From a virus (lineage: Duplodnaviria > Heunggongvirae > Uroviricota > Caudoviricetes), in IMG/VR virus record IMGVR_UViG_2910903598_000005, positions 69,058-133,057 of that record: a stretch of DNA of 64,000 bases; one strand, written 5' to 3'. The translations under genes were made by a program, and so were the position numbers. How positions within the stretch are numbered: position 1 is the first letter of the stretch; the number at the start of each line of letters is the position of its first letter. This document shows, in pieces, positions 7,106 through 57,307 of the stretch. The notes under the pieces are model-generated. The model had not been told where the DNA came from and ran no database searches. It saw only the letters and a program-made list of their open reading frames with translations.

Positions 7106-7123
7106 GAAGGAAGGTTGGAAATC

Positions 7124-7435: not shown

Positions 7436-7452
7436 AATAGGAGTGTTGGAAA

Positions 7453-7791
7453 ATGAAAGAAAGAGAATTAAGAACTGCAAAGAAGTTTGGCATTTTAGAT
7501 AAATGTAAATCGTTGGAAAAAGATCTTTTACAAATTAATAGAGTTGAAGCGATAGAATTTGATCTTAACGGATTTTACAGCGATATATATCAAGTAATTA
7601 TCTTAGCAAGATATGATATTCCAATAACTTTAGAAAACTATTTTGAAACACGAAAAGAAGTTGTGAAAAATATTATCAAGGTTGCTGGGAATTATGGATT
7701 AACAAGAACAGAAGATTCTATAGAGGACTACGGAACGACATTTTATTTTGTGTTTCGTTGTTCTAAAGAATGGAAAAATAAAGAAAACTAA
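7453..7791 (+). CDS. hypothetical protein (112 aa)
   Basis: Ribosome-binding site TAGGAGTG. Confidence 0.5.
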   Translation: MKERELRTAKKFGILDKCKSLEKDLLQINRVEAIEFDLNGFYSDIYQVIILARYDIPITLENYFETRKEVVKNIIKVAGNYGLTRTEDSIEDYGTTFYFVFRCSKEWKNKEN

Positions 7792-7812
7792 GAAAAAAGG
7801 AAGGTACACAAA

Positions 7813-8049
7813 ATGGAAATTTCAAAGAAACAAACTTATGAACAGTATCAGTTACAATGGATGATTGATCACGGTTTTTCATTAAAAGATTTAATGGAAT
7901 CTATGGACAGATATTTTATGAACGATGGAGATTCTATCCAGGAATTGTTTGAGGATTGGGAGTGTAACTGTGGATTTGGCGGTATATTGTATGCTTGTAA
8001 AGATGAAGCAATAGATTGTGGCGAATGTATAGAAGATGAGGAAGAATAG
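7813..8049 (+). CDS. hypothetical acidic Cys-containing protein (78 aa)
   Basis: Ribosome-binding site AAGGAAGG. Confidence 0.5.
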   Translation: MEISKKQTYEQYQLQWMIDHGFSLKDLMESMDRYFMNDGDSIQELFEDWECNCGFGGILYACKDEAIDCGECIEDEEE

Positions 8050-8059
8050 GAGAATAATT

Positions 8060-8332
8060 ATGGAAATTTTAAAGATGACAAGAACAAACATGGTAGTGAT
8101 TCAGACAGTGGAAAAGGAAGAACGTAACACTTTTGACATTGGAAAAATCAGAGTCGCAGCCTTGCCACCGATCGCAAAGAAAGATCTTATCGCAGAACTT
8201 AAAAGCAAGGGCTTCTGCGATGGAATGATCCATACGGTATTACAATGCAAGCTGGAAGATCTAAACGGATATGTGAACGTATGGAAGTATGTAGCGTATA
8301 TCTTAGCCGTAGAACTGATGGAAAGATTATAG
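8060..8332 (+). CDS. hypothetical protein
   Basis: ATG after ribosome-binding site TAGGAGAA. The upstream ATG at 8036 overlaps the preceding gene. Confidence 0.45.
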   Translation: MEILKMTRTNMVVIQTVEKEERNTFDIGKIRVAALPPIAKKDLIAELKSKGFCDGMIHTVLQCKLEDLNGYVNVWKYVAYILAVELMERL

Positions 8333-8347
8333 AAGGGAGCTGGAAAT

Positions 8348-8467
8348 ATGGGAACTTCTTTTAAATTTGTAGATAGTGTAGGCAATATTTATTGGTATAA
8401 ATTTAATTCAGTTGACAAAGCTCGTCATTTTGCATATGTTCATGGTTTATGTTTCTTAGGTAGTTAG
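8348..8467 (+). CDS. small hypothetical protein (39 aa)
   Basis: Ribosome-binding site GAAGGGAG. Below the ORF-track cutoff. Confidence 0.3.
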   Translation: MGTSFKFVDSVGNIYWYKFNSVDKARHFAYVHGLCFLGS

Positions 8468-8494
8468 CAATGGCATAGAAGGAAGGTGGAAATT

Positions 8495-8683
8495 ATGATA
8501 ACAAGAAATACATATCCCGATGGTAGAACGGAAATTTTCTGTACAAATCCAGATGAATACTGGGATCTTAGTATTGAGTACGATCTTGAAGATTGCGGGA
8601 TGAGTGGAAAATATTATGGGTGGGGCTGGAGTCGTGATAACAAACGTAATGTTGATGTTTATTCTAAAAATTTAGAAGAATAG
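8495..8683 (+). CDS. hypothetical protein
   Basis: ATG in the recurring context AAGGTGGAAATTATG. Confidence 0.5.
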   Translation: MITRNTYPDGRTEIFCTNPDEYWDLSIEYDLEDCGMSGKYYGWGWSRDNKRNVDVYSKNLEE

Positions 8684-8699
8684 AAAGTAGGTGGAAAGA

Positions 8700-8954
8700 A
8701 TGAGTCGTAGAACGACAATGACAGCATTAGCGTGCCACGTAGAACGAAAGTATAATACTTTATACTTCACAGAAAATCCTCCGAACGCTGGAATTGATGA
8801 TAGCTTGCATGGATATAGATATTTCTTATTATATAAGAATACGTTCGGAATTTTTCGGAAATATAGAACGCAAGAAGAAGCAATTAACGGCATGACGGAA
8901 ATTTTAAGAGAAGATCCAACTAATCTATTCAATTTCTCTATGTGTCGTGCATAG
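8700..8954 (+). CDS. hypothetical protein
   Basis: ATG after AGGTGGAAAGA. Confidence 0.5.
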   Translation: MSRRTTMTALACHVERKYNTLYFTENPPNAGIDDSLHGYRYFLLYKNTFGIFRKYRTQEEAINGMTEILREDPTNLFNFSMCRA

Positions 8955-13558: not shown

Positions 13559-13719
13559 AATGGAAAATATCATTTGATATGAATCATTCTGACACACCAG
13601 AAATTGACGAACTAGAATTAGAGTGAATACAAATTAATATAGGTAACTAGGACACTTATGGAAAATTCCAGAGTGTCTTTTTTAATACAAATTTTTACAT
13701 AAGAAAGGTGGAATTGATT

Positions 13720-15072
13720 ATGAATTTAAACGAAATGGAAATTCCTTGCGATCCAATTTTGGATAAAGCAAAGAGAGATGAACTGGTACAGAACACAGAA
13801 CTTTTGAAACAGGTTACAATCAAGCCGATCCCGTGGCTTCCTGGACGAGATTATATTACTACAGAACAGGTAGCACGATTTTTTGATGGAGATGTTGACG
13901 AGGTTAAGAGATTGTGTACGAAGTATCGCAAAGAGTTTTTAGACGATGGAATGGAAGTTAAGACAATACAAGAAATCATTGACGGTCAGGACGCAACAAC
14001 GGAAAAACAGAAGGGAAGAATCATTGTAACGTATCCGAACGGATTGAATATCTCATTCGGCTATAAGGGTGCTAAGGTGTTTACTCTTAAATGTTTGATC
14101 AGATTGTCTTTACTGATGGAAACTTCAAGCCTTGCTGAGAACGTAAGACATTATGTTTTTATTAATGAGTACATCACGATGGAAGAGCAGAGAGAACAAG
14201 AGCAGGTAGAGGCAGGTGTGCAGCTTGTAGACACAACGGAAATTTTAGGTAGAAGAATTGACTTATACAGAAGCATTGAAGATCCGTTATTCTTGGCAAG
14301 AGATGTTGCAGAATGGATTGATTATAGTAAACGTCCTGATGGAAGTTATAAAACAGATATGATGTTACAGGCGATTGATTCAGAGGAAAAATATAAGACC
14401 AAAATCTTAACCGCCAATAATGTTGGCGGGTCAAATTTAGGTCAGATTGATTCTACGGGAAAGACTATTAATCCATTTTGGTTTCTGACAGAAGATGGAC
14501 TCTATGAAGTATGTATGCAGTCACGCAAACCGATTGCAAAGCAGATGAAGAAACAGATTAAAGAATATCTTAGAAACATTCGTAAGACAGGCGGTGCGGT
14601 TGACTTTGGAAAAGAGTCACAGTTCATTGAACACTACTTCCCGTCATTTTCTGAGGATGTCAAGCTTGCTATGGTAACCGATCTGCGAACACAAAACAAA
14701 GAACTCAAAGAAGAGAATCAGAAGTTACAGAATGATAATAAGCTATTAGCAGCGGAAATTTTGACGTGGGATGATCGCAATAAGATGAACGCTGGAATTA
14801 GGAAGTTGGCTGCCGTTACAGGAACACAATTCTCTGTTATGTGGAACGAGCTTTATAAGAACTTGCAATACAAATATCAGATTGATGTTAAGAAACGTGG
14901 TAAGAAACCATTTCTTCAGTGGATTCAAGAACATGAATGGGATAAGGTAATGAAAGTCTTTTGTGCAATGTGTGAAGCTAGAAACCTATCTCCAACAGAT
15001 ATGTTCCAACAGACAGCACCAGTGGAAAATTTATATGATAATGAAGATGAGGATGATGAAGTATGGAATTAA
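13720..15072 (+). CDS. Bro-N/KilA-N-domain protein (antirepressor-like), about 450 aa
   Basis: Contains ARDVAEWIDYS...EDGLYEVCMQSRKPIAKQMKKQIKEYLRNIRKTGG (Bro-N pattern) and an N-terminal ORF6N-like segment. ATG in context AAAGGTGGAATTGATTATG. Confidence 0.55.
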   Translation: MNLNEMEIPCDPILDKAKRDELVQNTELLKQVTIKPIPWLPGRDYITTEQVARFFDGDVDEVKRLCTKYRKEFLDDGMEVKTIQEIIDGQDATTEKQKGRIIVTYPNGLNISFGYKGAKVFTLKCLIRLSLLMETSSLAENVRHYVFINEYITMEEQREQEQVEAGVQLVDTTEILGRRIDLYRSIEDPLFLARDVAEWIDYSKRPDGSYKTDMMLQAIDSEEKYKTKILTANNVGGSNLGQIDSTGKTINPFWFLTEDGLYEVCMQSRKPIAKQMKKQIKEYLRNIRKTGGAVDFGKESQFIEHYFPSFSEDVKLAMVTDLRTQNKELKEENQKLQNDNKLLAAEILTWDDRNKMNAGIRKLAAVTGTQFSVMWNELYKNLQYKYQIDVKKRGKKPFLQWIQEHEWDKVMKVFCAMCEARNLSPTDMFQQTAPVENLYDNEDEDDEVWN

Positions 15073-15630: not shown

Positions 15631-16725
15631 ATGAACCTACAGTTAGTAAAAACGGAAAATTTTAACGATATATCGTGTGATTTTTATAGTGCTGAGGACG
15701 ATATTTGGATGACAAGAAAGCAGATCGGAGAGGCACTGGAATATGGAGATCCACAGAAAGCAATTGATAATTTGCACAATAGATATAGAGATAGACTGGA
15801 TAAATATTCAGTTACCCTCAAACTGGGGGCTACTGATAACAAGAAGTATGACACTACACTCTATAATGAACGTGGCGTGATGGAAATTTGTAGATGGAGC
15901 AGACAGCCAAAGGCAAACGCCTTCATGGATTGGGTTTGGGACGTGATTTCCTCTTATCGTCATGGAAATTTAAAAACAGGAACTCCTGTAACAACAGTAG
16001 AACAGTTTCTTACAGAACAGACAGAACTTATGAAGCAGATGGAAAAGAATAATGAACGTCTGTATAAAGTTACTATTAAGGGTTTCAATCAGTTAGCAGA
16101 CATTGTGAAAGAGATGAAAGCCGAACGGAAAGAATTGTATAAGCAGATCAGCAAACCAACAAAAGATATTCCAGTAGTAGATACTGAAAGTGTTATCGCA
16201 GAATATAAGCTCAATGAATGGAAGTCCAATGTCTATTCAATCATTGATGATATTCTAAAAGAATCTGATGAATTAGGGACTACTACAAGAGATATTCTCA
16301 GAGAAGCATACAGGTATCTTACTAACACATATGGAATTGTGTGGGAGCAGGATCGGAAAGAATACAAAGAGAAATATAATATCGGGGAAAGAGGTAATGT
16401 ACCAACGATTGATCTTTGCTATGACAAGTATCCTGATCTGCTAGTCAATTCATTGGAAAAACTTCTGCGACAGTTCAGGAAAGAAAATGCACAGCCTGAT
16501 TGGGAAGAAATGAAGATCAAAATTACCAATTATGCCAATCATATTGGAAATAAATCTAAAGGTGGAACGTCTGTTTATCGGAAAATCTACACTAAGATGA
16601 CAGAGAATGGAGTTAACTGGGATGAATATGCTCATGGCTTGTCTAAATCTCAGCTTATTAAAACTAATGCAACTTTGTACAACAGATTTTACGAAGCAGC
16701 GGTGGAAATTATTTCAGAAGAATAG
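15631..16725 (+). CDS. Bro-N/AntA-like antirepressor-family protein (364 aa)
   Basis: N-terminus NFNDISCDFYSAEDDIWMTRKQIGEALEYGDPQKAI...NERGVMEICRWSRQPKANAFMDWVWDVI matches the Bro-N pattern. Ribosome-binding site AAAGGAAG. Confidence 0.6.
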   Translation: MNLQLVKTENFNDISCDFYSAEDDIWMTRKQIGEALEYGDPQKAIDNLHNRYRDRLDKYSVTLKLGATDNKKYDTTLYNERGVMEICRWSRQPKANAFMDWVWDVISSYRHGNLKTGTPVTTVEQFLTEQTELMKQMEKNNERLYKVTIKGFNQLADIVKEMKAERKELYKQISKPTKDIPVVDTESVIAEYKLNEWKSNVYSIIDDILKESDELGTTTRDILREAYRYLTNTYGIVWEQDRKEYKEKYNIGERGNVPTIDLCYDKYPDLLVNSLEKLLRQFRKENAQPDWEEMKIKITNYANHIGNKSKGGTSVYRKIYTKMTENGVNWDEYAHGLSKSQLIKTNATLYNRFYEAAVEIISEE

Positions 16726-25668: not shown

Positions 25669-26493
25669 ATGACAGAAGAAAAGAATGGTGTAAATGAAGC
25701 ATTGAATACGTTAGTGTTTAATAATGATGAGTTTGGAAATATTCGCACAGTGATTTTAGATAATAATCCGTGGTTTGTAGGGAAAGACGTAGCCAGTTGC
25801 CTTGGGTATGTAGATACGGTAAATGCATTAAAGAAACATATTGATGCCGAAGATAAGCGATTATTTCTAAGGTGTCAAATCGCCACCTTAGAAAATGTAC
25901 CAAACAGAGGACTTACATTTATTAATGAATCTGGTCTATATGCTTTAATTTTTGGAAGCAAGCTTGATAGTGCGAAAGAATTTAAACATTGGGTGACATC
26001 CGAAGTTCTTCCACAGATCCGTAAGACAGGTGGTTATATCCCAATTGATAAAGAAGATGATGATTTAACTATCATGGCGAAAGCATTGAATATTATGCAA
26101 AACACTTTGGTACAAAAGGATGAACTATTAGCCCAAAAAGAAGAAGTTATCAATCAGCAGAAACCACTTGTTGATTTTGCCAATACAGTCAGTGCCACAG
26201 AAACAATGGTTGACATGAAAACAATGGCAAAGCTTCTTGAGAAAGAAAATCAAGATATTCATATGGGCAGAAACAAATTATTTGCGTGGTTAAGAAAAGA
26301 AGGGTATCTCATGTCAGATAATACCCCATATGAAAGATATGTTAAGCAGGGCATTTTCAAATTAACAGAAAGTGAAGTTGAAACTAAGAATGGAAACAAG
26401 TTGATCACCAAAACATATGTGACTGGCAAAGGGCAATTATACTTGGCAAAGAAATTAGCACAATACTTTGCCTCACAGAGTGCATCAGCTTAG
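25669..26493 (+). CDS. Bro-N / KilAC-domain phage antirepressor
   Basis: IRTVILDNNPWFVGKDVASCLGY...NESGLYALIFGSKLDSAKEFKHWVTSEVLPQIRKTGGY is a canonical Bro-N domain. Ribosome-binding site TAGGAGG. Confidence 0.75.
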   Translation: MTEEKNGVNEALNTLVFNNDEFGNIRTVILDNNPWFVGKDVASCLGYVDTVNALKKHIDAEDKRLFLRCQIATLENVPNRGLTFINESGLYALIFGSKLDSAKEFKHWVTSEVLPQIRKTGGYIPIDKEDDDLTIMAKALNIMQNTLVQKDELLAQKEEVINQQKPLVDFANTVSATETMVDMKTMAKLLEKENQDIHMGRNKLFAWLRKEGYLMSDNTPYERYVKQGIFKLTESEVETKNGNKLITKTYVTGKGQLYLAKKLAQYFASQSASA

Positions 26494-27854: not shown

Positions 27855-29924
27855 ATGTGTACACCAATGAATGAAAGCTGGAGTAACTTTTTAAGCAAAT
27901 TGTCAGAGCGTTTAAATAAAATGCTCGACTATGTAGAGAAAAACAATTCTACATTGTATGAAACCGATATTGATAAGGATGAACTTTGGGAAGTATATCT
28001 GAGTAGTTTCCCTGAAGGAACTAACAAAATGTATCGCAAGCGAAGAGAATATGACTGTGGTCATTGTCGAAATTTTATTAAAACAATCGGTGGAGCTGTG
28101 ACAATTGTTGACGGTAAGATTCATACGATCTGGGAGATTGACACTGAGGATGTCGTATTTCAGCCAGTAGTTGATGCTCTGAGAACATATGTAGAATCTA
28201 AACCAATCAAAGATATTTGGAGACATTTTACAAATACAGTTGGTACAAAAACCACAAATGAGTATACAGAAGATAAGCAGATTATCAAATGGACTCATAT
28301 GTATACACCGATTCCAGAGAGATTACTAGAAAGAAAATCCGATATTCCTACAGCAAAAGCAAAAGTTAGAGATCGAAAGAGCGTGTTCAAAAGATCGCTT
28401 GATGAAATCACAGAAGAAGCTGTTGATACGGTATTAGAACTGATCGCTTCAAATACTCTTTATAGAGGACAGGAATGGGAAAGAATCTTAAAGGACTTTA
28501 GAAAATATCAGCGAGAATACAATAGTTTATCCGATGAAGAGAAAGATACATACACATGGGCAAAAGCCATGACGATCGGAGATGTAATTGGTCGTATTAG
28601 AAACCATAGTATTGGTACATTGCTTGTAAATATCAGTGAGGATATGGACTTAGATAATGCGGTTAAGGCTTATGAAAATGTTGTAGCTCCTGCGAATTAC
28701 AAACGACCAAAGGCAATTTTTACAAAGAAAATGCTTGAGGATGCAAAGAAAACTGTGACTGATTTAGGATATATGGATTCATTACAGCGTAGATTTGCGA
28801 AACTTGATGATATTACAGTCAACAATATCCTGTTTTGTAATCGTGATGCAGCACCACGTATTCAGGGCGGTTTAGATATTTTCGATGAGATGAGTAAGGA
28901 AGTTGCTGTAAATCCTAAGAAGTTCTCTAAAGTCGAAGAAATCAGTGCAGAGAAATTCGTATCAGATGTACTTCCAACGGCAAAAGAATTAGAAGTTCTG
29001 TTTGAAAATCGTCACAAGAAGAATATGGTTTCACTGATCGCACCTGTAAATAAAGATGCTAAGAACATGATGAAGTGGAGTAATCCTTTCAGTTGGGCAT
29101 ACACAGGAAATATGACAGATAGCGAAATGAAAGAAAGAGTTAAGAACGCAGGTGGAGCAGTCGATGGAGTCTTAAGATTTTCAATTCAGTGGAATGCAGG
29201 AAAAGATTGGAATAGGGATGATTTTGATGCACATTGTAAAACACCTTGTCAGCATATTTTCTTTAGCCATATGGTTGATCACGTGACACGAGGCAGACTT
29301 GATGTTGATGTAATCAATCCAGAAAAAGGAAAACCTGCTGTAGAAAATATTACATGGGCGGATAAATCTGAAATGGTTGATGGAGATTATGAATTTTTCG
29401 TACATAATTATTGCCATAGCAACGGTACATCAGGATTTACAGCAGAGATTGAATTTGATGGTCAGATTTACGAATTTGAATATGATAAACCTTTAAGACA
29501 GGGACAGAACGTACCAGTGGCTACAGTTACATTAAAAGATGGAGTATTCACAATCAAAGAGAAACTTCCATCAACAACATCTTCAAGAGAAATCTGGGGA
29601 ATCAATACAAATCAGTTTGTGCCAGTAACAGTAATGTGTTATTCACCTAACTATTGGGACGAGCAGACAGGTATTGGACATAAACATTATCTGTTTATGT
29701 TAAACGGATGTGTAAATGAAGATACTCCAAATGGATTCTTCAATGAGTTTTTGAAGCAGGAATTAGTACAGCACAAGAGAGTATTCGAGGCTTTAGGAAG
29801 CAAGATGCATGTCGCAGATGATCCAAACCAGTTATCAGGAATTGGCTTCAGTTCTACAAAACGAGATGATGTGATCGTTAAAGTCAAGGGTGCAACAGAA
29901 AGAGTTCTTAAAATTAAATTTTAA
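27855..29924 (+). CDS. large hypothetical protein (689 aa), Cys/His-containing (YDCGHCRNF), no recognisable catalytic motif by eye
   Basis: Ribosome-binding site AAAAGGAGA. Longest ORF in the accessory block. Confidence 0.6.
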   Translation: MCTPMNESWSNFLSKLSERLNKMLDYVEKNNSTLYETDIDKDELWEVYLSSFPEGTNKMYRKRREYDCGHCRNFIKTIGGAVTIVDGKIHTIWEIDTEDVVFQPVVDALRTYVESKPIKDIWRHFTNTVGTKTTNEYTEDKQIIKWTHMYTPIPERLLERKSDIPTAKAKVRDRKSVFKRSLDEITEEAVDTVLELIASNTLYRGQEWERILKDFRKYQREYNSLSDEEKDTYTWAKAMTIGDVIGRIRNHSIGTLLVNISEDMDLDNAVKAYENVVAPANYKRPKAIFTKKMLEDAKKTVTDLGYMDSLQRRFAKLDDITVNNILFCNRDAAPRIQGGLDIFDEMSKEVAVNPKKFSKVEEISAEKFVSDVLPTAKELEVLFENRHKKNMVSLIAPVNKDAKNMMKWSNPFSWAYTGNMTDSEMKERVKNAGGAVDGVLRFSIQWNAGKDWNRDDFDAHCKTPCQHIFFSHMVDHVTRGRLDVDVINPEKGKPAVENITWADKSEMVDGDYEFFVHNYCHSNGTSGFTAEIEFDGQIYEFEYDKPLRQGQNVPVATVTLKDGVFTIKEKLPSTTSSREIWGINTNQFVPVTVMCYSPNYWDEQTGIGHKHYLFMLNGCVNEDTPNGFFNEFLKQELVQHKRVFEALGSKMHVADDPNQLSGIGFSSTKRDDVIVKVKGATERVLKIKF

Positions 29925-29944: not shown

Positions 29945-30334
29945 ATGACAACAGAAAAGTTATTCGAAATGGCAACAAGAAGCAAATTGAGATTCCCATC
30001 AACAAAGGGAGAATTATCCGTAGAAGATTTATGGGATTTATCTGATAAAGATTTAGACGTGGTTTATAAAAATCTGAAAGATCAGGAAGTTAAATCTTCA
30101 GAAGAAAGTCTGTTGGATGATGCAAATGTTGATCCAAAATTAACGGCTGCGATTGGTATTGTGAAGTATATCTTTACAACAAAACGTAATGAGAGACTTG
30201 CTGAAAAGGAACGTATTAATAAGAAACTGACACAGAGAAAATATATTGATGCTCTTTCCAAGAAACAGGATGAGGCTATTGAGAAGATGTCAGAAGCAGA
30301 ATTACGTGCAATGATTGATTCGTTAGAAGATTAA
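29945..30334 (+). CDS. hypothetical protein (129 aa)
   Basis: Ribosome-binding site AAAAGGAGA. Confidence 0.55.
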   Translation: MTTEKLFEMATRSKLRFPSTKGELSVEDLWDLSDKDLDVVYKNLKDQEVKSSEESLLDDANVDPKLTAAIGIVKYIFTTKRNERLAEKERINKKLTQRKYIDALSKKQDEAIEKMSEAELRAMIDSLED

Positions 30335-30391
30335 GATAATACACCTTCCCGTCAAATTTGACGGGTGGGTGCTTAAAGAAAGGAGACTGGA

Positions 30392-30859
30392 ATGATTTAT
30401 AAATTAGAATTAGGCGACTGGTCGGAAGATGGGCATAAAATATCAGAAAGTTTTTTATTTGATTGTAACTATGATATTCATAAAATTCGACAAGCGTATA
30501 AAGACAGTTGTAAAAAGCTAGGAGTAGCTTTTAATTACAATGAAGATTATACGGGTCTAGGTCTTGGTTATAGAAGTGAGAGACTGATTTGGACAGAGTA
30601 TCAAGAATCAGAAATGAGCGAAACAGCATTTGAAATTTTAAATAATTCTGGGTGTTTTAAAGAGGTTGATTTCTATAAAGAAGATGGCGTGTATTATATT
30701 GAAGAAAGGAAAGATTGTGCAAAACTTATTATGAATTTTATCGCACTGTCTATGCCTGAAGATTTTCGATATAAGCTTGTCCAAGAGCCAAAAGTTGAAT
30801 CGATTAATAGTTGGAATGATGAACTGAGACAGCACTTTGGGTATGGATTATTTGATTAA
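30392..30859 (+). CDS. hypothetical protein (155 aa)
   Basis: Ribosome-binding site AAAGGAGA. Confidence 0.55.
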   Translation: MIYKLELGDWSEDGHKISESFLFDCNYDIHKIRQAYKDSCKKLGVAFNYNEDYTGLGLGYRSERLIWTEYQESEMSETAFEILNNSGCFKEVDFYKEDGVYYIEERKDCAKLIMNFIALSMPEDFRYKLVQEPKVESINSWNDELRQHFGYGLFD

Positions 30860-30887
30860 TAAAACAGTAATTTAAAGGAAGAGAAAT

Positions 30888-31220
30888 ATGGAAGTTAAAG
30901 CAAAATGGACAGGTCGTGGTTTTGCACTCTGTATTGGAGAATGGAAGCTTTATGTTGATGGTAAAGATGTTACCGATAAGATTCCAGAAGACTTACGCAC
31001 AGAACCTATGAATACATATAAAAGATATGAGCGATGGTATTTTAAGGACTGGGTTGAAGAATGGGAATCATATTATGACGGACTGAAACAAGATGAGTGG
31101 ATTGAGTCTAATAAATATTGGTTAGATGAAATTACAACAGATATTGATGTTCAGCGCCAGATTTTCAAGGCAATCAACGAAGAGGATTTTCGCACTAATT
31201 CTTGTGGCGGATGTATTTAG
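30888..31220 (+). CDS. hypothetical protein (110 aa)
   Basis: Ribosome-binding site AAAGGAAGAG. Confidence 0.5.
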   Translation: MEVKAKWTGRGFALCIGEWKLYVDGKDVTDKIPEDLRTEPMNTYKRYERWYFKDWVEEWESYYDGLKQDEWIESNKYWLDEITTDIDVQRQIFKAINEEDFRTNSCGGCI

Positions 31221-31285
31221 TAACTAGATTATGACATCTGTATATGGTGTTGTGATAAATAAATTTTATAACAAAGGAGATATTT

Positions 31286-32746
31286 ATGATTGAAGTAATT
31301 GGAACAGTGGTACCAGTGGTTGTTGCGGTAGGTGGCGTAGGAGCTATTATCGGTAGCGGCTATGTCAAAGCAAGTCCAGATAAAGCTTATATTATTTCTG
31401 GACTTAGAAAGACACCTAAGACATTAATTGGTAAGGCAGGGTTAAAAATCCCATTCTTTGAAAAAGCAGATCATCTTAATCTTGAGTTAATTCCAATTGA
31501 TGTTAAGACATCAAGTTCTGTGCCTACAGCAGATTATATCAATATCAATGTAGATGCAGCGGTCAATGTAAAGGTTAGCAGTAATCCAGAAAGATTAAAA
31601 CTTGCAGCAGAAAACTTCTTAAATAAGCCAGTAGGCGATATTGGACAGGTCGCAAGAGAAGTCCTTGAAGGTAATATGCGAGAGATCGTTGGAAAGATGA
31701 GCCTCGAAGAAATGGTTTCTGATCGTCAGAAATTTGCACAGCTTGTTACAGAAAATGCGAAGCCAGACCTTGCTGCAATGGGATTAGATATCATCAGTTT
31801 TAATGTGCAGAATTTTATGGATGATAATGATGTTATTGAAAATCTTGGTGTAGATAATGTTGTTAAAATTCAGAAGAAGGCTGCAATTTCCAGAGCTGAA
31901 AGCGAAAGAGATATTGAAAAAGCAAAAGCAATGGCTGAAAAAGAAGCGAATGATGCAAGGGTTGAGTCAGAAACAGCGATCGCAGAAAAGAATAACAATC
32001 TGGAAATTAAAAAATCTGAACTTGAGAAGATTTCAAAAGCAAAGAAGGCTGAGGCAGATGCAGCATACAAGATTCAGGAAGAAAAATCACGTAAAGAAAT
32101 TGAAGTTGTAACTGCGGATGCTAATATTATGCGTCAGGAAAAGGAAATTGAACTGAAGCGTAAAGACGTTGAGGTAACAGAGCAGACATTAGATGCGCAG
32201 ATTAAGAAACAAGCAGAAGCTGAAAAATATGCTTCTCAGCAGAGAGCAGATGCAGACTTATACAAGAGACAGAAAGAATCTGAAGCTAATAAATATGCTA
32301 AAGAAAAAGAAGCTGAATCTACAAAATATGCTATGGAACAGGAAGCTGAAGGTATTCGTGCAAAGGGTGTAGCAGAAGCCGAGGCAATCAAAGCTAAAGG
32401 TATTGCTGAAGCAGAAGCAATCGAAAAGAAAGCAGAAGCTATGAAACAGATGGGTAAAGCTTCTATTGTAGAAATGATGTGCCAGATGTTCCCAGAAGCA
32501 GTTAAAAATGCAGCCGCACCATTAGGAAATGTAGGAAGTATCACTATGTATGGAGAAGGAAACACAACAAAATTAACAAAAGATATTATGAATGTTGTGA
32601 ATCAGGTATCAGATGGTGTTAAAGGATCTACAGGTGTTGATCTTGCAAAGATGCTAAAAGATTTTGTTTCTGAAGATAAAGAAGTAGAATCTACAGATAA
32701 TGAAAATCTTGGAACACCAGAGCCAGCAGATTACCGTGAGTTCTAA
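31286..32746 (+). CDS. flotillin-like SPFH/Band-7 membrane protein (FloT/YqiK-like)
   Basis: N-terminal transmembrane helix, an SPFH core (LIGKAGLKIPFFEKADHLNLELIPIDVKT...), and a long Ala/Glu/Lys-rich coiled coil with EA repeats (AEAEAIKAKGIAEAEAIEKKAEA). Ribosome-binding site AAAGGAGA. Confidence 0.8.
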   Translation: MIEVIGTVVPVVVAVGGVGAIIGSGYVKASPDKAYIISGLRKTPKTLIGKAGLKIPFFEKADHLNLELIPIDVKTSSSVPTADYININVDAAVNVKVSSNPERLKLAAENFLNKPVGDIGQVAREVLEGNMREIVGKMSLEEMVSDRQKFAQLVTENAKPDLAAMGLDIISFNVQNFMDDNDVIENLGVDNVVKIQKKAAISRAESERDIEKAKAMAEKEANDARVESETAIAEKNNNLEIKKSELEKISKAKKAEADAAYKIQEEKSRKEIEVVTADANIMRQEKEIELKRKDVEVTEQTLDAQIKKQAEAEKYASQQRADADLYKRQKESEANKYAKEKEAESTKYAMEQEAEGIRAKGVAEAEAIKAKGIAEAEAIEKKAEAMKQMGKASIVEMMCQMFPEAVKNAAAPLGNVGSITMYGEGNTTKLTKDIMNVVNQVSDGVKGSTGVDLAKMLKDFVSEDKEVESTDNENLGTPEPADYREF

Positions 32747-32760
32747 TAGGAGAAATTATT

Positions 32761-33495
32761 ATGACAATTATTATTATTTGTGTAATTGTAGCGATTATCG
32801 CATATTTACAATTTACTAAAAACGGAAAGCAGATTAAAAATGTGGCATCTGGAACAGTTACAGAAAAGATCAAAGAAAATGCAATGACTCCAGAGGGAGC
32901 AAGAGCCAGATATAATACTGCAATTAAAGAGAAACAAGACTTTTATAAGAAAACAATGGGTACATACACAACGGTAGCTGGTAGATTGGCAACAATGGAA
33001 GATGATCTCAAAGAAACAAAAGAAGAAATTTCTAAAACCGAGGCAATGATCAACCAGTACATTGATAATCATGATGATAAAAAAGCAATGTATTATGCTC
33101 AAAAATTAGCCACGCTAAAGGCACAGAAATCAGTGTACGAAAAGAAAATCCCAGAGTTGCAAACCACAAAGGATAAACAGGAAGAAATTAAAAACCAGGC
33201 ATATGATCAGCTCATTAAGTTAAAAGGCGAAAAAGATACTGTAGTTCTCCAGATGGAGGCAGATCAGCAGATTGCAGAATTACAGAAAAATTTAGATCAA
33301 TATAATAGTTCAAATGTTGCTCAGGAAGGTTTGGAAGAGGTTCGAGAAGGAGCAAAGAAACTTAGCGAACAAGCCAAAGGCGTTGCTATTGCGTATGAAT
33401 CTAGTGCAGAAACATTAGATTATCGTATGGAGCAGGATGAACGACAGCAGGAAGCTCAGGCTATCTTAGATCAGATGAAAAACGCTCGTAAATAG
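32761..33495 (+). CDS. membrane-anchored coiled-coil protein, PspA/IM30-like helical-hairpin candidate
   Basis: Single N-terminal transmembrane helix MTIIIICVIVAIIAYLQF, then about 200 aa of heptad-like coiled coil loosely alignable to PspA. Ribosome-binding site TAGGAGAA, 14 nt after the flotillin stop. Confidence 0.45.
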   Translation: MTIIIICVIVAIIAYLQFTKNGKQIKNVASGTVTEKIKENAMTPEGARARYNTAIKEKQDFYKKTMGTYTTVAGRLATMEDDLKETKEEISKTEAMINQYIDNHDDKKAMYYAQKLATLKAQKSVYEKKIPELQTTKDKQEEIKNQAYDQLIKLKGEKDTVVLQMEADQQIAELQKNLDQYNSSNVAQEGLEEVREGAKKLSEQAKGVAIAYESSAETLDYRMEQDERQQEAQAILDQMKNARK

Positions 33496-33536
33496 CAGAT
33501 AAATTCATCTACAAAAATTAATTTCACAAACATAAA

Positions 33537-33622
33537 ACTGGCATTTTATGACTCTATAAAACACAATATATAGTGATTATCCAATTATTGAACCACTATA
33601 TATAGTTGTATAAAGTGCCAGT
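33537..33622 (+). other. Long imperfect hairpin (ACTGGCA...TGCCAGT with inner ATATATAGTG / CACTATATAT) ending 4 nt before the tRNA 5' end
   Basis: Read directly. A possible precursor or leader structure, or a small RNA. Confidence 0.35.
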
Positions 33623-33625
33623 CAT

Positions 33626-33763
33626 GGAAACATAGCTCAGTTGGTAGAGCAGGCAATACATAAACATTCATTTTTCTACCTCCATATAAGTATTTTTATT
33701 TATTTACATTTAATTTTCATCACATATAAATTGCCGACACAGGTTCGATTCCTGTTGTTTCCA
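33626..33763 (+). tRNA. tRNA-like gene interrupted by an insertion of about 75 nt in the anticodon loop (identity undetermined)
   Basis: Perfect 7-bp acceptor stem GGAAACA/TGTTTCC. D-arm GCTC-AGTTGGTA-GAGC. Anticodon stem GGCAA ... TTGCC separated by about 74 nt. T-arm ACAGG-TTCGATT-CCTGT. Discriminator A. Terminator immediately downstream. Confidence 0.55.
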
Positions 33764-33765
33764 CT

Positions 33766-33805
33766 AAAAAAGACCTCAACCTAAATGGTTAAAGTCTTTT
33801 TGGTT
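33766..33805. terminator. bidirectional rho-independent terminator between the tRNA (+) and the HTH gene (-)
   Basis: AAAAAGACC...GGTtaAAGTCTTTTT, with A-run and T-run on both sides. Confidence 0.6.
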
Positions 33806-34007
33806 AATCGTTTGGTATGACCTCGATAACATCTTCAACTTTGCAATCAAGATATAAGCAAATTTTGTCAATGTTTTCGAGACTGATATACTGATTCTTT
33901 GCCATCTTGGCAATTGTACCAGACCCCATATTTAAAGCGGTTCGTAAATCAGATTTTGTCATACCCTTTTTCGCTAAAGTTACGAAAAGCGGTTTATAAC
34001 TTATCAT
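33804..34007 (-). CDS. small XRE/Cro-like helix-turn-helix DNA-binding protein (67 aa)
   Basis: MISYKPLFVTLAKKGMTKSDLRTALNMGSGTIAKMAKNQ... has an HTH pattern. Minus-strand ribosome-binding site GGAGGT 6 nt upstream. The longer track ORF lacks a ribosome-binding site. Confidence 0.6.
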   Translation of the reverse strand: MISYKPLFVTLAKKGMTKSDLRTALNMGSGTIAKMAKNQYISLENIDKICLYLDCKVEDVIEVIPND

Positions 34008-34088
34008 ATGATATACCTCCACATCTATATTGTAACATATTATATACAGGATGTAAAATAAAATATTCAAGAAGTTGAAGATTTTGTA

Positions 34089-34117
34089 TTGACACTATGT
34101 GCAAGAAGTGGTATATT
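34089..34117 (+). promoter_or_regulatory. sigma70-like promoter (TTGACA, 17 nt, TATATT) divergent from the HTH gene
   Basis: TTGACA at 34089-34094, TATATT at 34112-34117. A minus-strand TTGAAT/TATATA pair also lies in this intergenic region. Confidence 0.5.
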
Positions 34118-34173
34118 ATATTCAACAAATGAAAGGTAAACTTCAAGAAAATGAAATATGAAGGAGTGAGAAA

Positions 34174-34581
34174 ATGTCAAATAAAATTTACAGATATTAT
34201 CAACCAAACGATAAAGATACAAAAGACAATCATTCAGATTGCGTGATCAGAGCATTAACAAAAGTGCTTGATAAAGAATGGTTAACAACATTTGATGATT
34301 TGTTACCATACGCAAGGGATATGCAGTGTATGCCATCAGAGCGAAAATGTTACGAAGAATATTTATTCGATAATGGGTTTGCTTATCAAGGTATTAGCAA
34401 CCGAAAAGGATCTAAACGACCAACAGTTGAAAGTTTTGCAAAAGATCATAAACAAGGCAATTACTTGGTAAATGTTGCGAATCATGTAGTTGCAATTTCA
34501 GACGGTTGTTATTACGACACATGGGATTCTGGAGATTGTTGCTTGTATGGATATTACTATAAGGAAGAAGGAGAGAAATAA
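34174..34581 (+). CDS. hypothetical Cys-rich protein (135 aa)
   Basis: Ribosome-binding site GAAGGAGTGAG. Confidence 0.55.
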   Translation: MSNKIYRYYQPNDKDTKDNHSDCVIRALTKVLDKEWLTTFDDLLPYARDMQCMPSERKCYEEYLFDNGFAYQGISNRKGSKRPTVESFAKDHKQGNYLVNVANHVVAISDGCYYDTWDSGDCCLYGYYYKEEGEK

Positions 34582-34869
34582 ATGAGAAAGAAAATTTTGG
34601 CAACGGTTCTAGGAACAACGATTTGCTTAGGATCAATGACAGGATGTACCGCAGGATTCAAAAGAGGAGTTGTTGATATGAAAAGCAATTGGAATGGTGG
34701 TATGAATAGAGTCATTACAGTATACACGGCAGACGGTAAGAAGATTGCTGAATATAAAGGAAAAATTGATATTGATACAAATGATGGTGGATATGTCAAG
34801 TTTGACTACAAAGGTAAGAGATATATTTATTATAACTGTTTTGTAGAGAGTATCGCAGATATTGATTAG
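34582..34869 (+). CDS. small lipoprotein (signal peptide plus lipobox-like MTGC)
   Basis: MRKKILATVLGTTICLGSMTGCTAG. Ribosome-binding site GGAGAGAAATAAATG. Confidence 0.5.
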   Translation: MRKKILATVLGTTICLGSMTGCTAGFKRGVVDMKSNWNGGMNRVITVYTADGKKIAEYKGKIDIDTNDGGYVKFDYKGKRYIYYNCFVESIADID

Positions 34870-34884
34870 AGAGGAGAGAAACAA

Positions 34885-35277
34885 ATGAATTTAGAAGAAA
34901 CTATCAAATGCGCAAATGATATGACAACAAAGAAATACACAGAAGCCATGTTGTGTCATGCGAATCCAGACGATGAAGAACTTGATGGATTGATTGACTG
35001 TGCCTTAAATCATGAGCAACTTGCGAAGTGGCTGGGAGAATTGAAAGAGTTAAAAGAATATAAAGAAAAGTATAGATGGCATGACTTAAGAAAGAATCCT
35101 GATGATCTGCCAGAAGATATTAAGTACGTTTGGGTTTTTATAAAAGGTGAATGCACTCATAGGTCATGGCACGATTCTCATGGATGGAGAAGGCGTAACA
35201 GTAACATTTTATACTATAACGACGAAAGTGTTTTGGCGTGGAGAGAGATTGAAGAGTTTAAAAGTGAGGGGAAATAA
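34885..35277 (+). CDS. hypothetical protein (130 aa)
   Basis: Ribosome-binding site GAGAGGAGAG. Confidence 0.5.
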   Translation: MNLEETIKCANDMTTKKYTEAMLCHANPDDEELDGLIDCALNHEQLAKWLGELKELKEYKEKYRWHDLRKNPDDLPEDIKYVWVFIKGECTHRSWHDSHGWRRRNSNILYYNDESVLAWREIEEFKSEGK

Positions 35278-35790
35278 ATGAGTACAACAAAAACAATTGA
35301 TATTTCAGTGCTGCCAGAGGCAGAACAGGATCTAATAAAAGCATTATTTGATAAATGTTGTGAAAGAGCGAAACCAAAAGAAAAAACTAATTCAGGGTCT
35401 AAAGTTTGGAAACCAAAATACGGTGAAAGATATCATTACATTGATGGTAGCGGATCTATTTATAGTGCAATATGGTTTAATAGCATTGTCGATAACGGTA
35501 GATGGGTATTAGGCAACGTATTTAAAACACAAGAAGAAGCAGTATTTGCAAGAAAGAAAAGAAAAGTAGAAGTTGAACTTGAGCGGTATGCAAAGGAACA
35601 CAATGGCACAGAATTTGCCAATCGTTGTTATTGTATTCGATGTGAAGAAGACGGAAAAAGACTTCTTTGCGATACATGGGCTACAACAAAAATACAGGGT
35701 ACAGTTATGTTTACATCAAAAGATGTTTTAGTTGATGCAATTGAAGCAATCGGAAGAGACAGAATCATTAAATACATCTTTGGAGCATAA
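35278..35790 (+). CDS. hypothetical protein, paralog A of a tandem pair
   Basis: The N-terminus KTIDISVLPEAEQDLIKALFDKCCER matches the next ORF (KTIDISKLSEAQQNLFKSLFEQFCER). Both share LGNVFKT and RIIKYIFG/RIIKYLFD. Confidence 0.55.
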   Translation: MSTTKTIDISVLPEAEQDLIKALFDKCCERAKPKEKTNSGSKVWKPKYGERYHYIDGSGSIYSAIWFNSIVDNGRWVLGNVFKTQEEAVFARKKRKVEVELERYAKEHNGTEFANRCYCIRCEEDGKRLLCDTWATTKIQGTVMFTSKDVLVDAIEAIGRDRIIKYIFGA

Positions 35791-35806: not shown

Positions 35807-36340
35807 ATGGGTATAGCAAAGACAATTGATATTTCAAAATTATCTGAAGCACAACAGAATTTATTCAAATCATTATTTGAGCAATTTTGTGAAAGATCAG
35901 AAAAAGAAGAAAAAGCTAATTCATGTGGTTTAAAGAATGGGGATACGTATTATTTCATCACTGATGATGGGCATATCTGTATGGCAAAATGGCAAGGTAG
36001 AGCATCAGATTTTAGAAGATTAGCTTTAGGTAATGTATTTAAGACTGAAAAGGATACAGAGTTTGCTATTGAAAAGCAGAAGGTTAGGGTTGAATTGCAA
36101 ATATATGCTGATGAACATAATGATCCTGATCAAGAAGAATGGGATGGAGCGAATTTTCATTATTATATTGGATATGATGTGACTGAGGATGATTTGGCAA
36201 AAATCCCTGCCGTACAACTTAGACGCCTAAATGAGGTATATTTTTCTTCTAAAGAAATCGCTGAGGATGCCGCCAACAAGGTTGGAGCAAAACGCATCAT
36301 AAAATATCTATTTGATGTTGATTGTGAGGTGGATGAATAG
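35807..36340 (+). CDS. hypothetical protein, paralog B of the tandem pair
   Basis: See 35278. Ribosome-binding site AGTGAGGTG. Confidence 0.55.
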   Translation: MGIAKTIDISKLSEAQQNLFKSLFEQFCERSEKEEKANSCGLKNGDTYYFITDDGHICMAKWQGRASDFRRLALGNVFKTEKDTEFAIEKQKVRVELQIYADEHNDPDQEEWDGANFHYYIGYDVTEDDLAKIPAVQLRRLNEVYFSSKEIAEDAANKVGAKRIIKYLFDVDCEVDE

Positions 36341-55713: not shown

Positions 55714-57307
55714 CATTTTGAACGATTGCAGAGGACTTTTTGAAGATGAGGTGTTTGAAATTATCATGCAGGAGCGTGGTATTGACGATCCAGAGCATTT
55801 TCTAAATCCTACGGAAGATGATTTACTTTCTCTTGATGACTTAAAAAATATTGATAAAGCATATAAGCTTTTGGTAGATGCAGTATACAAAGATAAACGT
55901 ATTGCAGTACATTTTGACACAGATACTGACGGAGTTGCAGCGGGAACTATTATTACACGACATTTAAAAAACATGACAGAAAATCCAGTAGATGTATACA
56001 TTAACCGAGGCAAACAGCATGGATTAGCAAATCAGGACATTGCTAAGTTTTATGGGTATGATTTACTGATTGTCGTTGATAGTTTGGATAAAGACGAGAC
56101 TCAGTATAAGGATTTAAAAGAAACAGGAGTTGATGTGATTGTGTTAGACCACCATGCCATCGATCCAGATGTTCCTTATGACAACTATTGCACATTAGTT
56201 TCTTCTCAGAGAGAATATGAAAATCCACAGCTATCTGGCGCAGGTGTTGTTTGGAAGTTTTGCAAGTATATTGATGAGCAGAATGGTACAGATTATGCAG
56301 ATGATTTGGTCGATCTAGCAGGTGTTGGGCTGATTGCAGATATGATGGATATGAGAGTAATGGAGAATCGTTACATTGTATCCGAAGCTTTGAAAGAAAT
56401 TAGAAATCCTGCGATTAAGAAGATTATTGGTGGATTTGAATTCAACAGCACAGCAGTTGCTTTTAGTATTGCACCGTTGGTTAATGCTGCAAACAGAATG
56501 GATCAGAATGAAATTGCCCTAAATGCTTTCCTTGAAGACGACAATAAAAAGTTACGAGGATATATTAAACAGTTAAAGCAATGCAAAGAAGACCAAAATG
56601 AAGAGGTCGCACAGCTGATGCCAATGATTGTGGAACAGTGTGAAGCTCAGAGTTATAAAAAGATGATCACAACTTTTATCGACACTGATTATGGTATTTC
56701 TGGGTTAATTGGAAACAAATTGCTTGAAAAATACCAGAAGCCGATTCTTGTGCTAAAGAAAAATGAAGATACATATGCAGGATCTATGCGAGCAGTTGGT
56801 GTAAAAGACTTCCGACAGATGTGTAATAACAGTCAGTTGGCTGAAGCAAATGGACATGAACTTGCCAGTGGTATTGAAATTCCTAGAAAGAACTTCGCTG
56901 AGTTCACCTCTTATATAGAAGAAACTCTTTCAGATAAGCCAGAAGATACAACAGTTGATGTCGATATTATGCTTGATATTTCAGACATCACAAGAAAAAT
57001 GGTTGACATGATTAAGAAAATTGATCGTATTTCTGGACAAGGATTTAAACCTGTAAGAGTTTATATTGAAGAGATTGACGACTATGACATTGGTCAGATG
57101 AGCAATTATAAACATCTTGTCCTGAAACCATGTAACAATGATAAATTGTGGATCATTAAATGGAACTACGATGGATCATTTGAGGATATGGAAGACCACT
57201 CTATGATGAATGATGAATTTTGTGCTGTAACTACTCTTGATTGTGGATTCTTTGGCAGAAAGTTTGTGCTGAAAGCAGTGTGTGATTCACTTGAAGAGGT
57301 GGGATGA
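55688..57307 (+). CDS. RecJ-like single-strand DNA exonuclease (DHH/DHHA1)
   Basis: Motifs IAVHFDTDTDGVAAG, VIVLDHH and distal GSMRAVGV/ANGHELASG. Confidence 0.7.
   Translation: MKTSKKKYNILNDCRGLFEDEVFEIIMQERGIDDPEHFLNPTEDDLLSLDDLKNIDKAYKLLVDAVYKDKRIAVHFDTDTDGVAAGTIITRHLKNMTENPVDVYINRGKQHGLANQDIAKFYGYDLLIVVDSLDKDETQYKDLKETGVDVIVLDHHAIDPDVPYDNYCTLVSSQREYENPQLSGAGVVWKFCKYIDEQNGTDYADDLVDLAGVGLIADMMDMRVMENRYIVSEALKEIRNPAIKKIIGGFEFNSTAVAFSIAPLVNAANRMDQNEIALNAFLEDDNKKLRGYIKQLKQCKEDQNEEVAQLMPMIVEQCEAQSYKKMITTFIDTDYGISGLIGNKLLEKYQKPILVLKKNEDTYAGSMRAVGVKDFRQMCNNSQLAEANGHELASGIEIPRKNFAEFTSYIEETLSDKPEDTTVDVDIMLDISDITRKMVDMIKKIDRISGQGFKPVRVYIEEIDDYDIGQMSNYKHLVLKPCNNDKLWIIKWNYDGSFEDMEDHSMMNDEFCAVTTLDCGFFGRKFVLKAVCDSLEEVG

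Follow-up and report, generated by a model that had tools for sequence, protein, structure and literature searches.

Among the membrane-remodelling proteins of the ESCRT-III superfamily, PspA and Vipp1 represent the bacterial branch; bacteria use them against envelope stress, including stress caused by phages. In Bacillus subtilis the SPFH-domain protein YdjI is needed to localise PspA (PMC8581546), and PspA/Snf7 homologues bearing a transmembrane (TM) helix have been described in ABC-transporter/PBPB-OmpA operons (PMC11237479). Among phages, the gut 'Jug' jumbo phages are reported to carry a terD gene that adjoins, and is co-transcribed with, a pspA-like gene, as well as P-type ATPases for Ca2+ (Sci Adv 2026, PMC12880540). 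Here we describe a stretch of 64,000 nt (the window; positions 69,058 to 133,057 of IMG/VR virus record IMGVR_UViG_2910903598_000005, a member of the Caudoviricetes) in which a flotillin gene is followed by a gene for a TM-anchored PspA-like protein. An initial annotation, made from the sequence without database searches, had pointed to this pair and had given as background that SPFH and PspA proteins act together in bacteria, which is documented (PMC8581546; PMC11237479). On balance we favour, by a modest degree of belief, the reading that the two genes form a phage-expressed cassette which maintains the membrane of the host.

The flotillin and the PspA-like protein

The window is phage DNA, encoding a DnaB-like helicase, a primase, a RecJ-like exonuclease, a split DNA polymerase and several Bro-N/KilAC antirepressor-like (Bro/Ant) proteins, with a G+C content of 30–36% and nearly all genes on the plus strand. 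A megablast search of positions 30000–35000 against GenBank phages gave no match. The flotillin gene (ORF1; 31286–32746, plus strand) encodes 486 amino acids (aa) and the PspA/IM30-like gene (ORF2; 32761–33495, plus strand) 244 aa. A ribosome-binding site (RBS), AAGGAG, can be read from the sequence at 31274–31279 (plus strand), 6 nt before the ATG of ORF1, which ends with a TAA at 32744–32746. The 14-nt spacer between the genes (32747–32760, plus strand) contains the RBS of ORF2, AGGAG at 32748–32752, from which the ATG at 32761 lies 8 nt on. The positions and lengths of both ORFs, the 14-nt gap and the separate RBS of the second gene, all given in the initial annotation, are therefore exact. 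Because a terminator scan found no plus-strand terminator-like site between ORF1 and ORF2, the two genes are probably co-transcribed.

Each protein has one hydrophobic window, at its N terminus (best 19-residue Kyte-Doolittle mean 2.46 at residues 4–22 of ORF1 and 2.54 at residues 1–19 of ORF2), and beyond this segment no 19-residue window exceeds 1.6 in either, which agrees with the single N-terminal TM helix previously proposed for both. The net charge is +4 after the TM segment of ORF1 and +3 after that of ORF2, as against 0 and −1 before the two segments, a pattern from which the positive-inside rule predicts that each protein has its main part on the cytoplasmic side.

ORF1 had been read as an SPFH flotillin, and comparison with domain and structure databases shows that it is one rather than a generic coiled coil. 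Behind the hydrophobic anchor (about residues 4–22) lie an SPFH/Band_7 domain at residues 50–207 (Pfam PF01145, E = 8.1e-24, 85 bits with a cut-off of 23.6) and a coiled coil rich in E, A and K, which make up 107 of the 200 residues from 201 to 400 and include the motif AEAEA twice, much as the EA-rich repeat had been described. A Flotillin C-terminal domain at residues 355–427 (PF15975, E = 3e-6) is marginal at 27.8 bits with a cut-off of 27, and precomputed PF15975 matches are present on nearly all ORF1 homologues. Residues 29–455 align with human flotillin-1 structures (PDB 9bq2_B and 9l3g_A, E = 1.1e-53) and with flotillin-2 (E = 1e-48). The NCBIfam FloT model NF058507 gives ORF1 296 bits, below its 700-bit equivalog cut-off; judged by these profiles, ORF1 is a flotillin-family protein and not a FloT equivalog.

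Homologues of ORF1 number in the thousands, and the phage clade itself is 81–99% identical. The nearest named homologues outside that clade are cellular flotillins of Longibaculum muris, Coprobacillus cateniformis and Lachnospiraceae (64–72% identity), and the flotillins of another lineage of large phages (L002 and its relatives) are only about 40% identical to ORF1. With about 70% identity to flotillins encoded by gut Firmicutes themselves, ORF1 is probably host-derived, and the simplest reading would be that it was taken from a gut Firmicute host fairly recently and independently of the flotillins found in other phage lineages. Capture of the flotillin/PspA pair as a bacterial operon was considered and rejected, as the neighbours of the Longibaculum flotillin are PadR/HAAS and radical-SAM genes with no PspA-like gene among them, and the close clade of ORF2 was not found in a pattern-based scan of cellular genomes. 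The two genes thus appear, by their sequence relationships, to be of different origins and not to have been captured as a bacterial unit.

Other viral flotillins were surveyed. A 'flotillin family protein' is already annotated in a few GenBank phages, and the best flotillin match in the phage collection was MT839823.1 (53% identity), followed by MT836322.1 ('Bacteriophage sp.', 11 kb; L004 in our set; 51% identity). The latter was not used as phage evidence owing to its bacterial-looking neighbourhood; the ORFs flanking its flotillin read as lgt-, ybaK-, greA- and glycoside-hydrolase-like, and it is probably bacterial DNA misfiled as viral. A paper on the phage Perkons, in which 'flotillin' is frequent, was set aside as irrelevant to phage-borne flotillins, the word referring there to integration into the host floA gene. 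In one relative of the window (L032, 4536–5983) the flotillin falls into two overlapping tblastn segments, possibly through a frameshift or an assembly error.

The relationship of ORF2 to PspA emerges at the level of its family. As a single sequence it matched only an unannotated PHROG family, phrog_33389, and its identity to PspA and Vipp1 proteins of solved structure is only about 13–17%. A word-indexed search recovered 17 homologues, two of which (73% and 61% identity) carry precomputed matches to the PspA family PF04012. In a 13-sequence alignment PF04012 was matched by 11 members (best E = 7.8e-11), and the profile of this alignment retrieved Vipp1/PspA structures as its top four PDB matches (E = 4e-4), collinear over query residues 28–207. 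With 93 sequences the Vipp1/PspA matches reached E = 8e-7, collinear over about 160 residues (Vipp1 27–186), with Synechocystis PspA at 2e-4; individually, 54 of the 93 family members matched PF04012 (best E = 6.6e-13), and the next-commonest Pfam family was matched by five. An exhaustive hidden Markov model search of 1.84 billion representative proteins yielded 237 clusters at E ≤ 1e-3, nearly all of 240–260 aa, by which measure the family is small and discrete. Relatives are encoded in 85 viral stretches, and a pattern-based scan of 185,579 cellular species genomes found no relative of the close clade; the gene family looks largely phage-borne.

Structure prediction was consistent with this assignment. 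An AlphaFold2 model of ORF2 reached a pLDDT of 77.9 with 11 sequences and of 86.7 (pTM 0.61) with 93 sequences, and is almost wholly helical with a long hairpin. The predicted helices (TM helix, residues 2–18; linker or alpha0-like segment, 20–41; alpha1, 44–102; alpha2+3, 106–182; alpha4, 190–214; alpha5, 216–243) have boundaries that reproduce the alpha0–alpha5 layout of PspA/ESCRT-III with an extra TM helix. Foldseek searches with the model placed Vipp1/PspA chains in 11 of the 12 top ranks (TM-score 0.47–0.66), but at E-values of 3e-3 to 5e-2; the predicted fold is consistent with PspA but not discriminating, and the argument is carried by the sequence profiles. Coiled-coil proteins, including tropomyosin, SMC arms and YscO, also appear among both the profile and the fold matches. 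This, together with the lack of a Pfam match for the window's own ORF2, is what would be expected if ORF2 were a generic coiled coil whose resemblance to PspA is compositional, leaving the pair without a membrane-repair meaning. That explanation is largely refuted, and we give it hardly any weight, because PF04012 is so much the commonest Pfam match in the family, because the top four PDB matches are all Vipp1/PspA with an E-value that improved from 4e-4 to 8e-7 on deepening the alignment, because the helix boundaries match PspA alpha1–alpha5, and because the genomic contexts of the family match those published for TM-bearing PspA homologues (PMC11237479). Judged by profiles and predicted fold, ORF2 is a divergent PspA/IM30 protein of the ESCRT-III superfamily with an additional N-terminal TM helix. 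The structure-prediction and profile checks that the initial annotation had proposed for both proteins bear out its assignments, with SPFH and Flotillin domains in the one and a PspA-like helix layout in the other. No pspB, pspC, pspF or liaI, liaF, liaRS partner domain was found among the ten neighbouring proteins scanned. In one relative (L056, 6001–6733) the PspA-like gene is split into two overlapping tblastn segments, again possibly by a frameshift or an assembly error.

Alternating partner genes and possible roles

In close relatives, on contigs of 55–215 kb, the same pair has a PM0253-family gene upstream, and a 135-aa gene and a reverse-strand HTH_26 gene downstream. In the window the left flank is a 110-aa gene (30888–31220, plus strand; phrog_20678; PM0253 family by precomputed Pfam match, with PF27390 on its homologues in L005–L008), and the right flank is an HTH_26 (Cro/C1-type) regulator gene (33804–34070, minus strand; Pfam HTH_26, E = 3e-14), which likely starts at the ATG at 34007; its product would then have 67 aa, the length called in L005–L008. 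When 80 IMG/VR loci that carry a homologue of ORF2 were sorted by the gene or genes immediately upstream, they fell into two main cassette types. Flotillin lies upstream in 32 loci, in which the PspA-like gene is 94–100% identical to ORF2. The upstream position is taken in 47 loci by a P-type ATPase of the Ca type, with or without a vWA/TerF gene, and one to three TerD genes, the PspA-like gene being 32–73% identical to ORF2. In the remaining locus (L038) the PspA-like gene, 95% identical, directly follows the PM0253-family gene without a partner. Conservation of the pair in related phages, which the initial annotation had proposed to check, is evident from 32 IMG/VR loci with the same pair and flanks, and from relatives on contigs of up to about 215 kb.

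The flanking genes are common to both cassette types: the 110-aa gene is 82–100% identical upstream of flotillin and of ATPase/TerD cassettes, and the HTH_26 gene 91–100% identical beside them. Because 13 of the 47 ATPase/TerD loci have the window's flanks at 82–100% protein identity, with a PspA-like gene that is only 50–73% identical, the cassettes can be seen to replace each other at a fixed locus. More specifically, ORF2 homologues at 61% and 50% identity have the same flanks and, upstream, a P-type cation ATPase, a vWA/TerF-like gene and TerD, and for those at 36–41% identity the upstream genes are a P-type ATPase and TerD in two or three copies. None of the ATPase, vWA-TerF and TerD genes, present in sister phages at this locus, was found by tblastn in the 64-kb window. 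A further connection is provided by protein P0017 of one relative (L016, 5001–6080), a TerD::PspA-like fusion in which a TerD domain stands in the place of the TM helix, supporting, at the level of gene structure, a direct functional link between TerD and the PspA-like family.

The unit of exchange extends beyond the partner gene. The divergent segment between cassette types spans the partner and most of the PspA-like gene, and in comparison with one relative (L047) its right boundary falls in the last ~100 nt of the PspA-like gene. A mosaic allele, P0003, found after flotillin on at least 10 contigs, combines a window-type N-terminal part of about 100 aa with a TerD-type C-terminal part of about 140 aa. 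The alpha2–alpha5 core thus seems able to pass from one cassette type to the other, an argument that the PspA-like protein has one and the same task in the two. Comparison of phage alleles gave dN/dS values of 0.03–0.18 for the flotillin and 0.05–0.16 for the PspA-like gene, and these stay low even across cassette types. By these ratios both genes are kept by purifying selection, which rules out that they are decaying passenger DNA.

More distant members of the ORF2 family occur in a module of an ABC permease, an ABC ATPase, a ~180-aa protein, the PspA-like gene and PBP-OmpA, as in Bacillus phage G (gp243–gp249), L003 and L176–L178. The PspA-like gene is therefore the constant element of at least three interchangeable modules, with flotillin, with an ATPase, optional vWA/TerF and TerD, or with an ABC transporter and PBP-OmpA. 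The initial annotation had called a phage-borne module of this kind unusual. Neither gene is rare in viruses, flotillin relatives being encoded by at least 146 viral stretches and ORF2 relatives by the 85 mentioned above, and it is the combination alone that is lineage-specific: a PspA-like gene lies within 4 kb in 18 of 78 sampled flotillin-bearing viral loci, all 18 from the window's own lineage. The pair lies in an early/accessory region, among Bro/Ant genes and genes of unknown function, upstream of the replication genes. This region is non-structural, and the pair is replaced or deleted in close relatives, on which grounds a virion or structural role was rejected.

The same counts can be turned towards the view that flotillin and the PspA-like gene are independent accessory genes ('morons') brought together by chance in a recombination hot-spot, the host-derived flotillin having a role of its own, such as scaffolding or membrane fluidity, and the PspA-like gene acting alone. 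Sixty of the 78 flotillin-bearing loci lack the PspA-like gene, and in the L002 lineage flotillin adjoins homologues of the window's 689-aa and 129-aa genes, again with no PspA-like gene. L038 keeps an intact PspA-like gene although it lacks flotillin, 47 loci pair the gene with other partners, and the locus is variable, with a nicotinamide adenine dinucleotide (NAD) salvage module just upstream that comes and goes regardless of cassette type. We nevertheless regard chance adjacency as unlikely, though it deserves serious consideration. It accounts poorly for the 14-nt spacing without an intervening terminator and for a divergent segment that covers the partner together with most of the PspA-like gene, identity returning in L047 only near the end of that gene. 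In addition, the PspA-like gene closes a membrane or transport module in every context, and there is experimental precedent for cooperation between SPFH and PspA proteins (PMC8581546).

We consider host-membrane maintenance by the pair the somewhat probable explanation. After infection, the anchored PspA-like protein would polymerise on the inner face of the host membrane, like PspA and Vipp1, and the polymer would seal or stiffen damaged or leaky patches so that the membrane potential is kept. The flotillin oligomer would organise the membrane patch and recruit or concentrate the PspA-like polymer, a part played for PspA in B. subtilis by the SPFH protein YdjI. For a large phage whose infection cycle is long, the gain might be a host that stays energised and intact until programmed lysis, guarded against injection damage, envelope stress, premature holin action and abortive-infection effectors that attack the membrane. 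In place of flotillin, sister phages have a Ca2+-exporting ATPase together with Ca2+-binding TerD and copine-like vWA proteins, and this substitution suggests that the shared task is coping with membrane leak and ion influx. By analogy, and not by a claim of homologous mechanism, the arrangement recalls the Ca2+-triggered ESCRT-III repair of eukaryotes (e.g. PMC13486606).

Several observations weigh against host-membrane maintenance by a flotillin/PspA-like pair. ORF2 itself has no PF04012 match at E ≤ 1, below every Pfam PspA threshold, so that its membership of the PspA family rests on family-level profiles. Its alpha0-like segment (residues 20–41) is not clearly amphipathic, with a hydrophobic moment of 0.05–0.24 compared with a median of 0.19 and a 95th percentile of 0.39 in shuffled sequences; the TM helix probably takes over membrane anchoring from alpha0. 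L038 retains an intact PspA-like gene with its RBS where flotillin is cleanly absent, in about 60 of the 78 viral loci with flotillin a PspA-like gene is missing within 4 kb, and the Longibaculum flotillin has no PspA-like neighbour, so that the pairing is not obligatory. Finally, neither protein, nor any of six neighbours, matches a model of known defence systems (PADLOC).

A more far-reaching proposal, which we think rather unlikely, is that the flotillin and Ca2+-ATPase/vWA/TerD cassettes are interchangeable front ends of one phage-specific, self-anchoring ESCRT-III-like polymer, serving in viral membrane-wound repair as counter-defence. They might be a prokaryotic and viral counterpart of the Ca2+-triggered plasma-membrane repair that ESCRT-III performs in eukaryotes, deployed against membrane-perforating abortive-infection effectors or as a decoy for PspA-tethered CBASS cyclases, the alternative cassettes being held by arms-race selection at a fixed hot-spot.

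That the cassette is a dedicated counter-defence device, neutralising depolarising or perforating abortive-infection effectors or decoying PspA-wired systems such as a CBASS cyclase, we judge improbable. Phage NAD-reconstitution pathways counter NAD-depleting defences, and the accessory region of relatives has a nicotinamidase/NAPRTase/NAD-synthase module; several Bro/Ant genes are close by, and the swapping of cassettes among near-identical phages is typical of arms-race loci. A speculative lead comes from B. subtilis, where conjugation to PspA keeps a CBASS cyclase inactive (PMC11153139). Yet neither the two proteins nor their neighbours match PADLOC, a library of defence rather than anti-defence proteins, no sequence feature links them to a particular defence system, and general membrane maintenance is a simpler account of the same facts.

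Superinfection exclusion or control of lysis timing, in which an anchored coiled-coil lattice would block injection by a competitor or delay holin triggering, seems to us distinctly improbable. It would suit two proteins predicted to be membrane-anchored with a cytoplasmic bulk, other small membrane or lipoprotein-like genes lie nearby (e.g. 34582–34869), and expression before the late genes is plausible in this non-structural part of the genome. There are, however, no adjacent holin, endolysin or spanin genes, the known exclusion proteins are, to our knowledge, small and unrelated to flotillin or the PspA-like family, and the Ca2+-ATPase/TerD replacement in sister phages fits ion and membrane homeostasis better than a block of injection.

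The partner swap between near-identical phages amounts to a natural experiment. It asks what recruits ESCRT-III-like polymers to bacterial membranes, whether flotillin scaffolds and the sensing or export of Ca2+ are two answers to one problem, and whether, and from what threat, large phages actively shield the membrane of their host. Should counter-defence against membrane-targeting immunity prove true, the cassettes would be a new class of anti-defence genes; if not, they would still show clearly how auxiliary membrane genes evolve in modular fashion in phages that are abundant in the human gut.

Features around the cassette

The initial annotation had placed a tRNA and a terminator behind the pair. 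The tRNA is real to Rfam (RF00005, 46.4 bits with a gathering score of 29; 33626–33763, plus strand) but is interrupted by an insertion of about 67–81 nt in the anticodon arm, where 81 nt remain unaligned in the Rfam match. Acceptor, D and T arms are intact, and a 5–6-bp anticodon stem encloses a ~67-nt AT-rich insertion in the anticodon loop, bounded by the near-direct repeats ACATAAA / ACATATAAA and containing the conserved CTACCTCC. The interrupted form folds as a cloverleaf (z = −2.97) and is kept in 46 of 46 close relatives, whatever the cassette type, with nearly invariant halves and a more variable insertion. Default ARAGORN found no tRNA anywhere in the window; its intron mode gave a 72-nt tRNA with a 67-nt insertion at 32/33, reported as tRNA-Tyr with an odd ATA anticodon. 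This assignment was rejected as non-canonical, and an anticodon cannot be assigned. An exact-pattern search of IMG/VR found no uninterrupted copy, and the tRNA body is only about 77% identical to phage tRNA-Ile and tRNA-Lys. The insertion is too short for a group I intron. A minus-strand mini-ORF behind the antisense GGAGG was discarded, since the frame is not conserved among relatives, and a length difference of about 60 nt between relatives in the tRNA intergenic region does not reflect presence or absence of the insertion.

As for the terminator, there is a hairpin with A/T-run flanks at about 33763–33804 (both strands), but it is imperfect, stronger on the minus strand (RNAfold −18.5 kcal/mol, against −12.0 kcal/mol on the plus strand) and not called by a simple consensus terminator scan. 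It is plausibly a bidirectional terminator closing both the plus-strand block and the minus-strand HTH gene, and stronger for the latter. Promoter-like sites matching 10–11 of 12 positions in the scan, with TG, lie at 34029–34057 (minus strand) and 34089–34117 (plus strand; TTGACA-17-TATATT with TG). Together with these divergent promoter-like sites, the HTH_26 gene, the only minus-strand gene of the region, looks from its arrangement like a small regulatory switch for the downstream plus-strand block. Two genes past the regulator, a 95-aa ORF (34582–34869, plus strand) begins with what resembles the signal peptide of a lipoprotein (MRKKILATVLGTTICLGSMTGC...) and matches DUF5052 weakly; superinfection exclusion is often the role of small lipoproteins encoded by phages. 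Further on, a tandem duplication in the accessory region has left paralogues at 35278–35790 and 35807–36340 (plus strand) that are 40% identical over their full length (E = 2e-34).

Upstream of the cassette, a 689-aa gene (27855–29924, plus strand; phrog_1735; DUF8224 by precomputed Pfam match) and a 129-aa gene (29945–30334, plus strand; phrog_2018) form a conserved pair, and a pair of homologues lies directly downstream of flotillin in the L002 lineage (6539–8953). A PDB sequence search with the 689-aa protein gave no match. Many close relatives (e.g. L005–L008, 1938–5600) carry a NAD-salvage module of about 3.7 kb at the site of the window's 28-nt intergenic stretch 30860–30887, with genes for an isochorismatase/nicotinamidase-like protein, a 278-aa protein, a NAPRTase/NAMPT-like protein and NAD synthase. 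The window is without this module, the presence of which is independent of cassette type and which may serve as NAD-reconstitution counter-defence. Three Bro-N/KilAC (Ant-like antirepressor) genes lie within 13 kb (13708–15072, 15631–16725 and 25669–26493, plus strand). The DNA polymerase (phrog_405) is split into an N-terminal ORF at 57304–58578 and a C-terminal one at 59751–61745 (plus strand), about 1.2 kb apart, with a 229-aa ORF (58746–59435) between them that bears a NUMOD3 homing-endonuclease DNA-binding motif, an arrangement that suggests insertion of an intron or mobile endonuclease.

Comparison with known systems

SPFH-PspA cooperation, TM-bearing PspA homologues, and terD/pspA-like genes and Ca2+ P-type ATPases in gut jumbo phages were already known. 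The literature searched held no account of a phage-borne flotillin/PspA-like cassette or of its allelic alternation with ATPase/TerD, and none in which a PspA-like gene forms the invariant centre of several membrane modules of phages.

ORF1 has the architecture of bacterial flotillins (FloT/YuaG, YqiK) and of eukaryotic flotillin-1/2, namely an anchor, SPFH/Band_7, an EA-rich coiled coil and the Flotillin C-terminal domain. It differs from the cellular proteins in being phage-encoded, in being paired with a PspA-like gene and in scoring below the FloT equivalog cut-off, and the neighbouring proteins that were scanned include no partner of the NfeD/YuaF type. ORF2 in turn shares the alpha1–alpha2 hairpin, alpha3, alpha4 and alpha5 with PspA, Vipp1 (IM30) and LiaH, but belongs to a small separate family and has a predicted true TM helix before a weakly amphipathic alpha0-like segment.

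As in the bacterial YdjI systems, an SPFH protein and a PspA homologue are encoded together in the window; joint action of the two at the membrane has been proposed for the bacterial systems and demonstrated for YdjI (PMC8581546; PMC11237479). The SPFH partner is, however, a classical flotillin and not of the soluble YdjI type, the YdjG/H adaptors, CesT/Tir chaperones and AAA+ ATPases of the bacterial systems are missing, the module is phage-borne, and its PspA homologue would anchor itself by its TM helix. The ABC-transporter/PBPB-OmpA operons (PMC11237479) offer the same context as the distant members of the ORF2 family in phage G, L003 and L176–L178; in the window the partner is flotillin instead, with no transporter or OmpA-domain genes nearby. 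Closest among phages are the Jug phages (PMC12880540), where a pspA-like gene likewise closes a stress/ion module, as in the ATPase-vWA/TerF-TerD-PspA-like cassettes of the window's sister phages. The likeness is drawn at the level of the 'pspA-like' label, and flotillin replaces ATPase/TerD in the window; furthermore, the Jug phages have genomes of 360–400 kb and infect Bacteroides, whereas the window's phages are of about 150–165 kb and probably infect Firmicutes.

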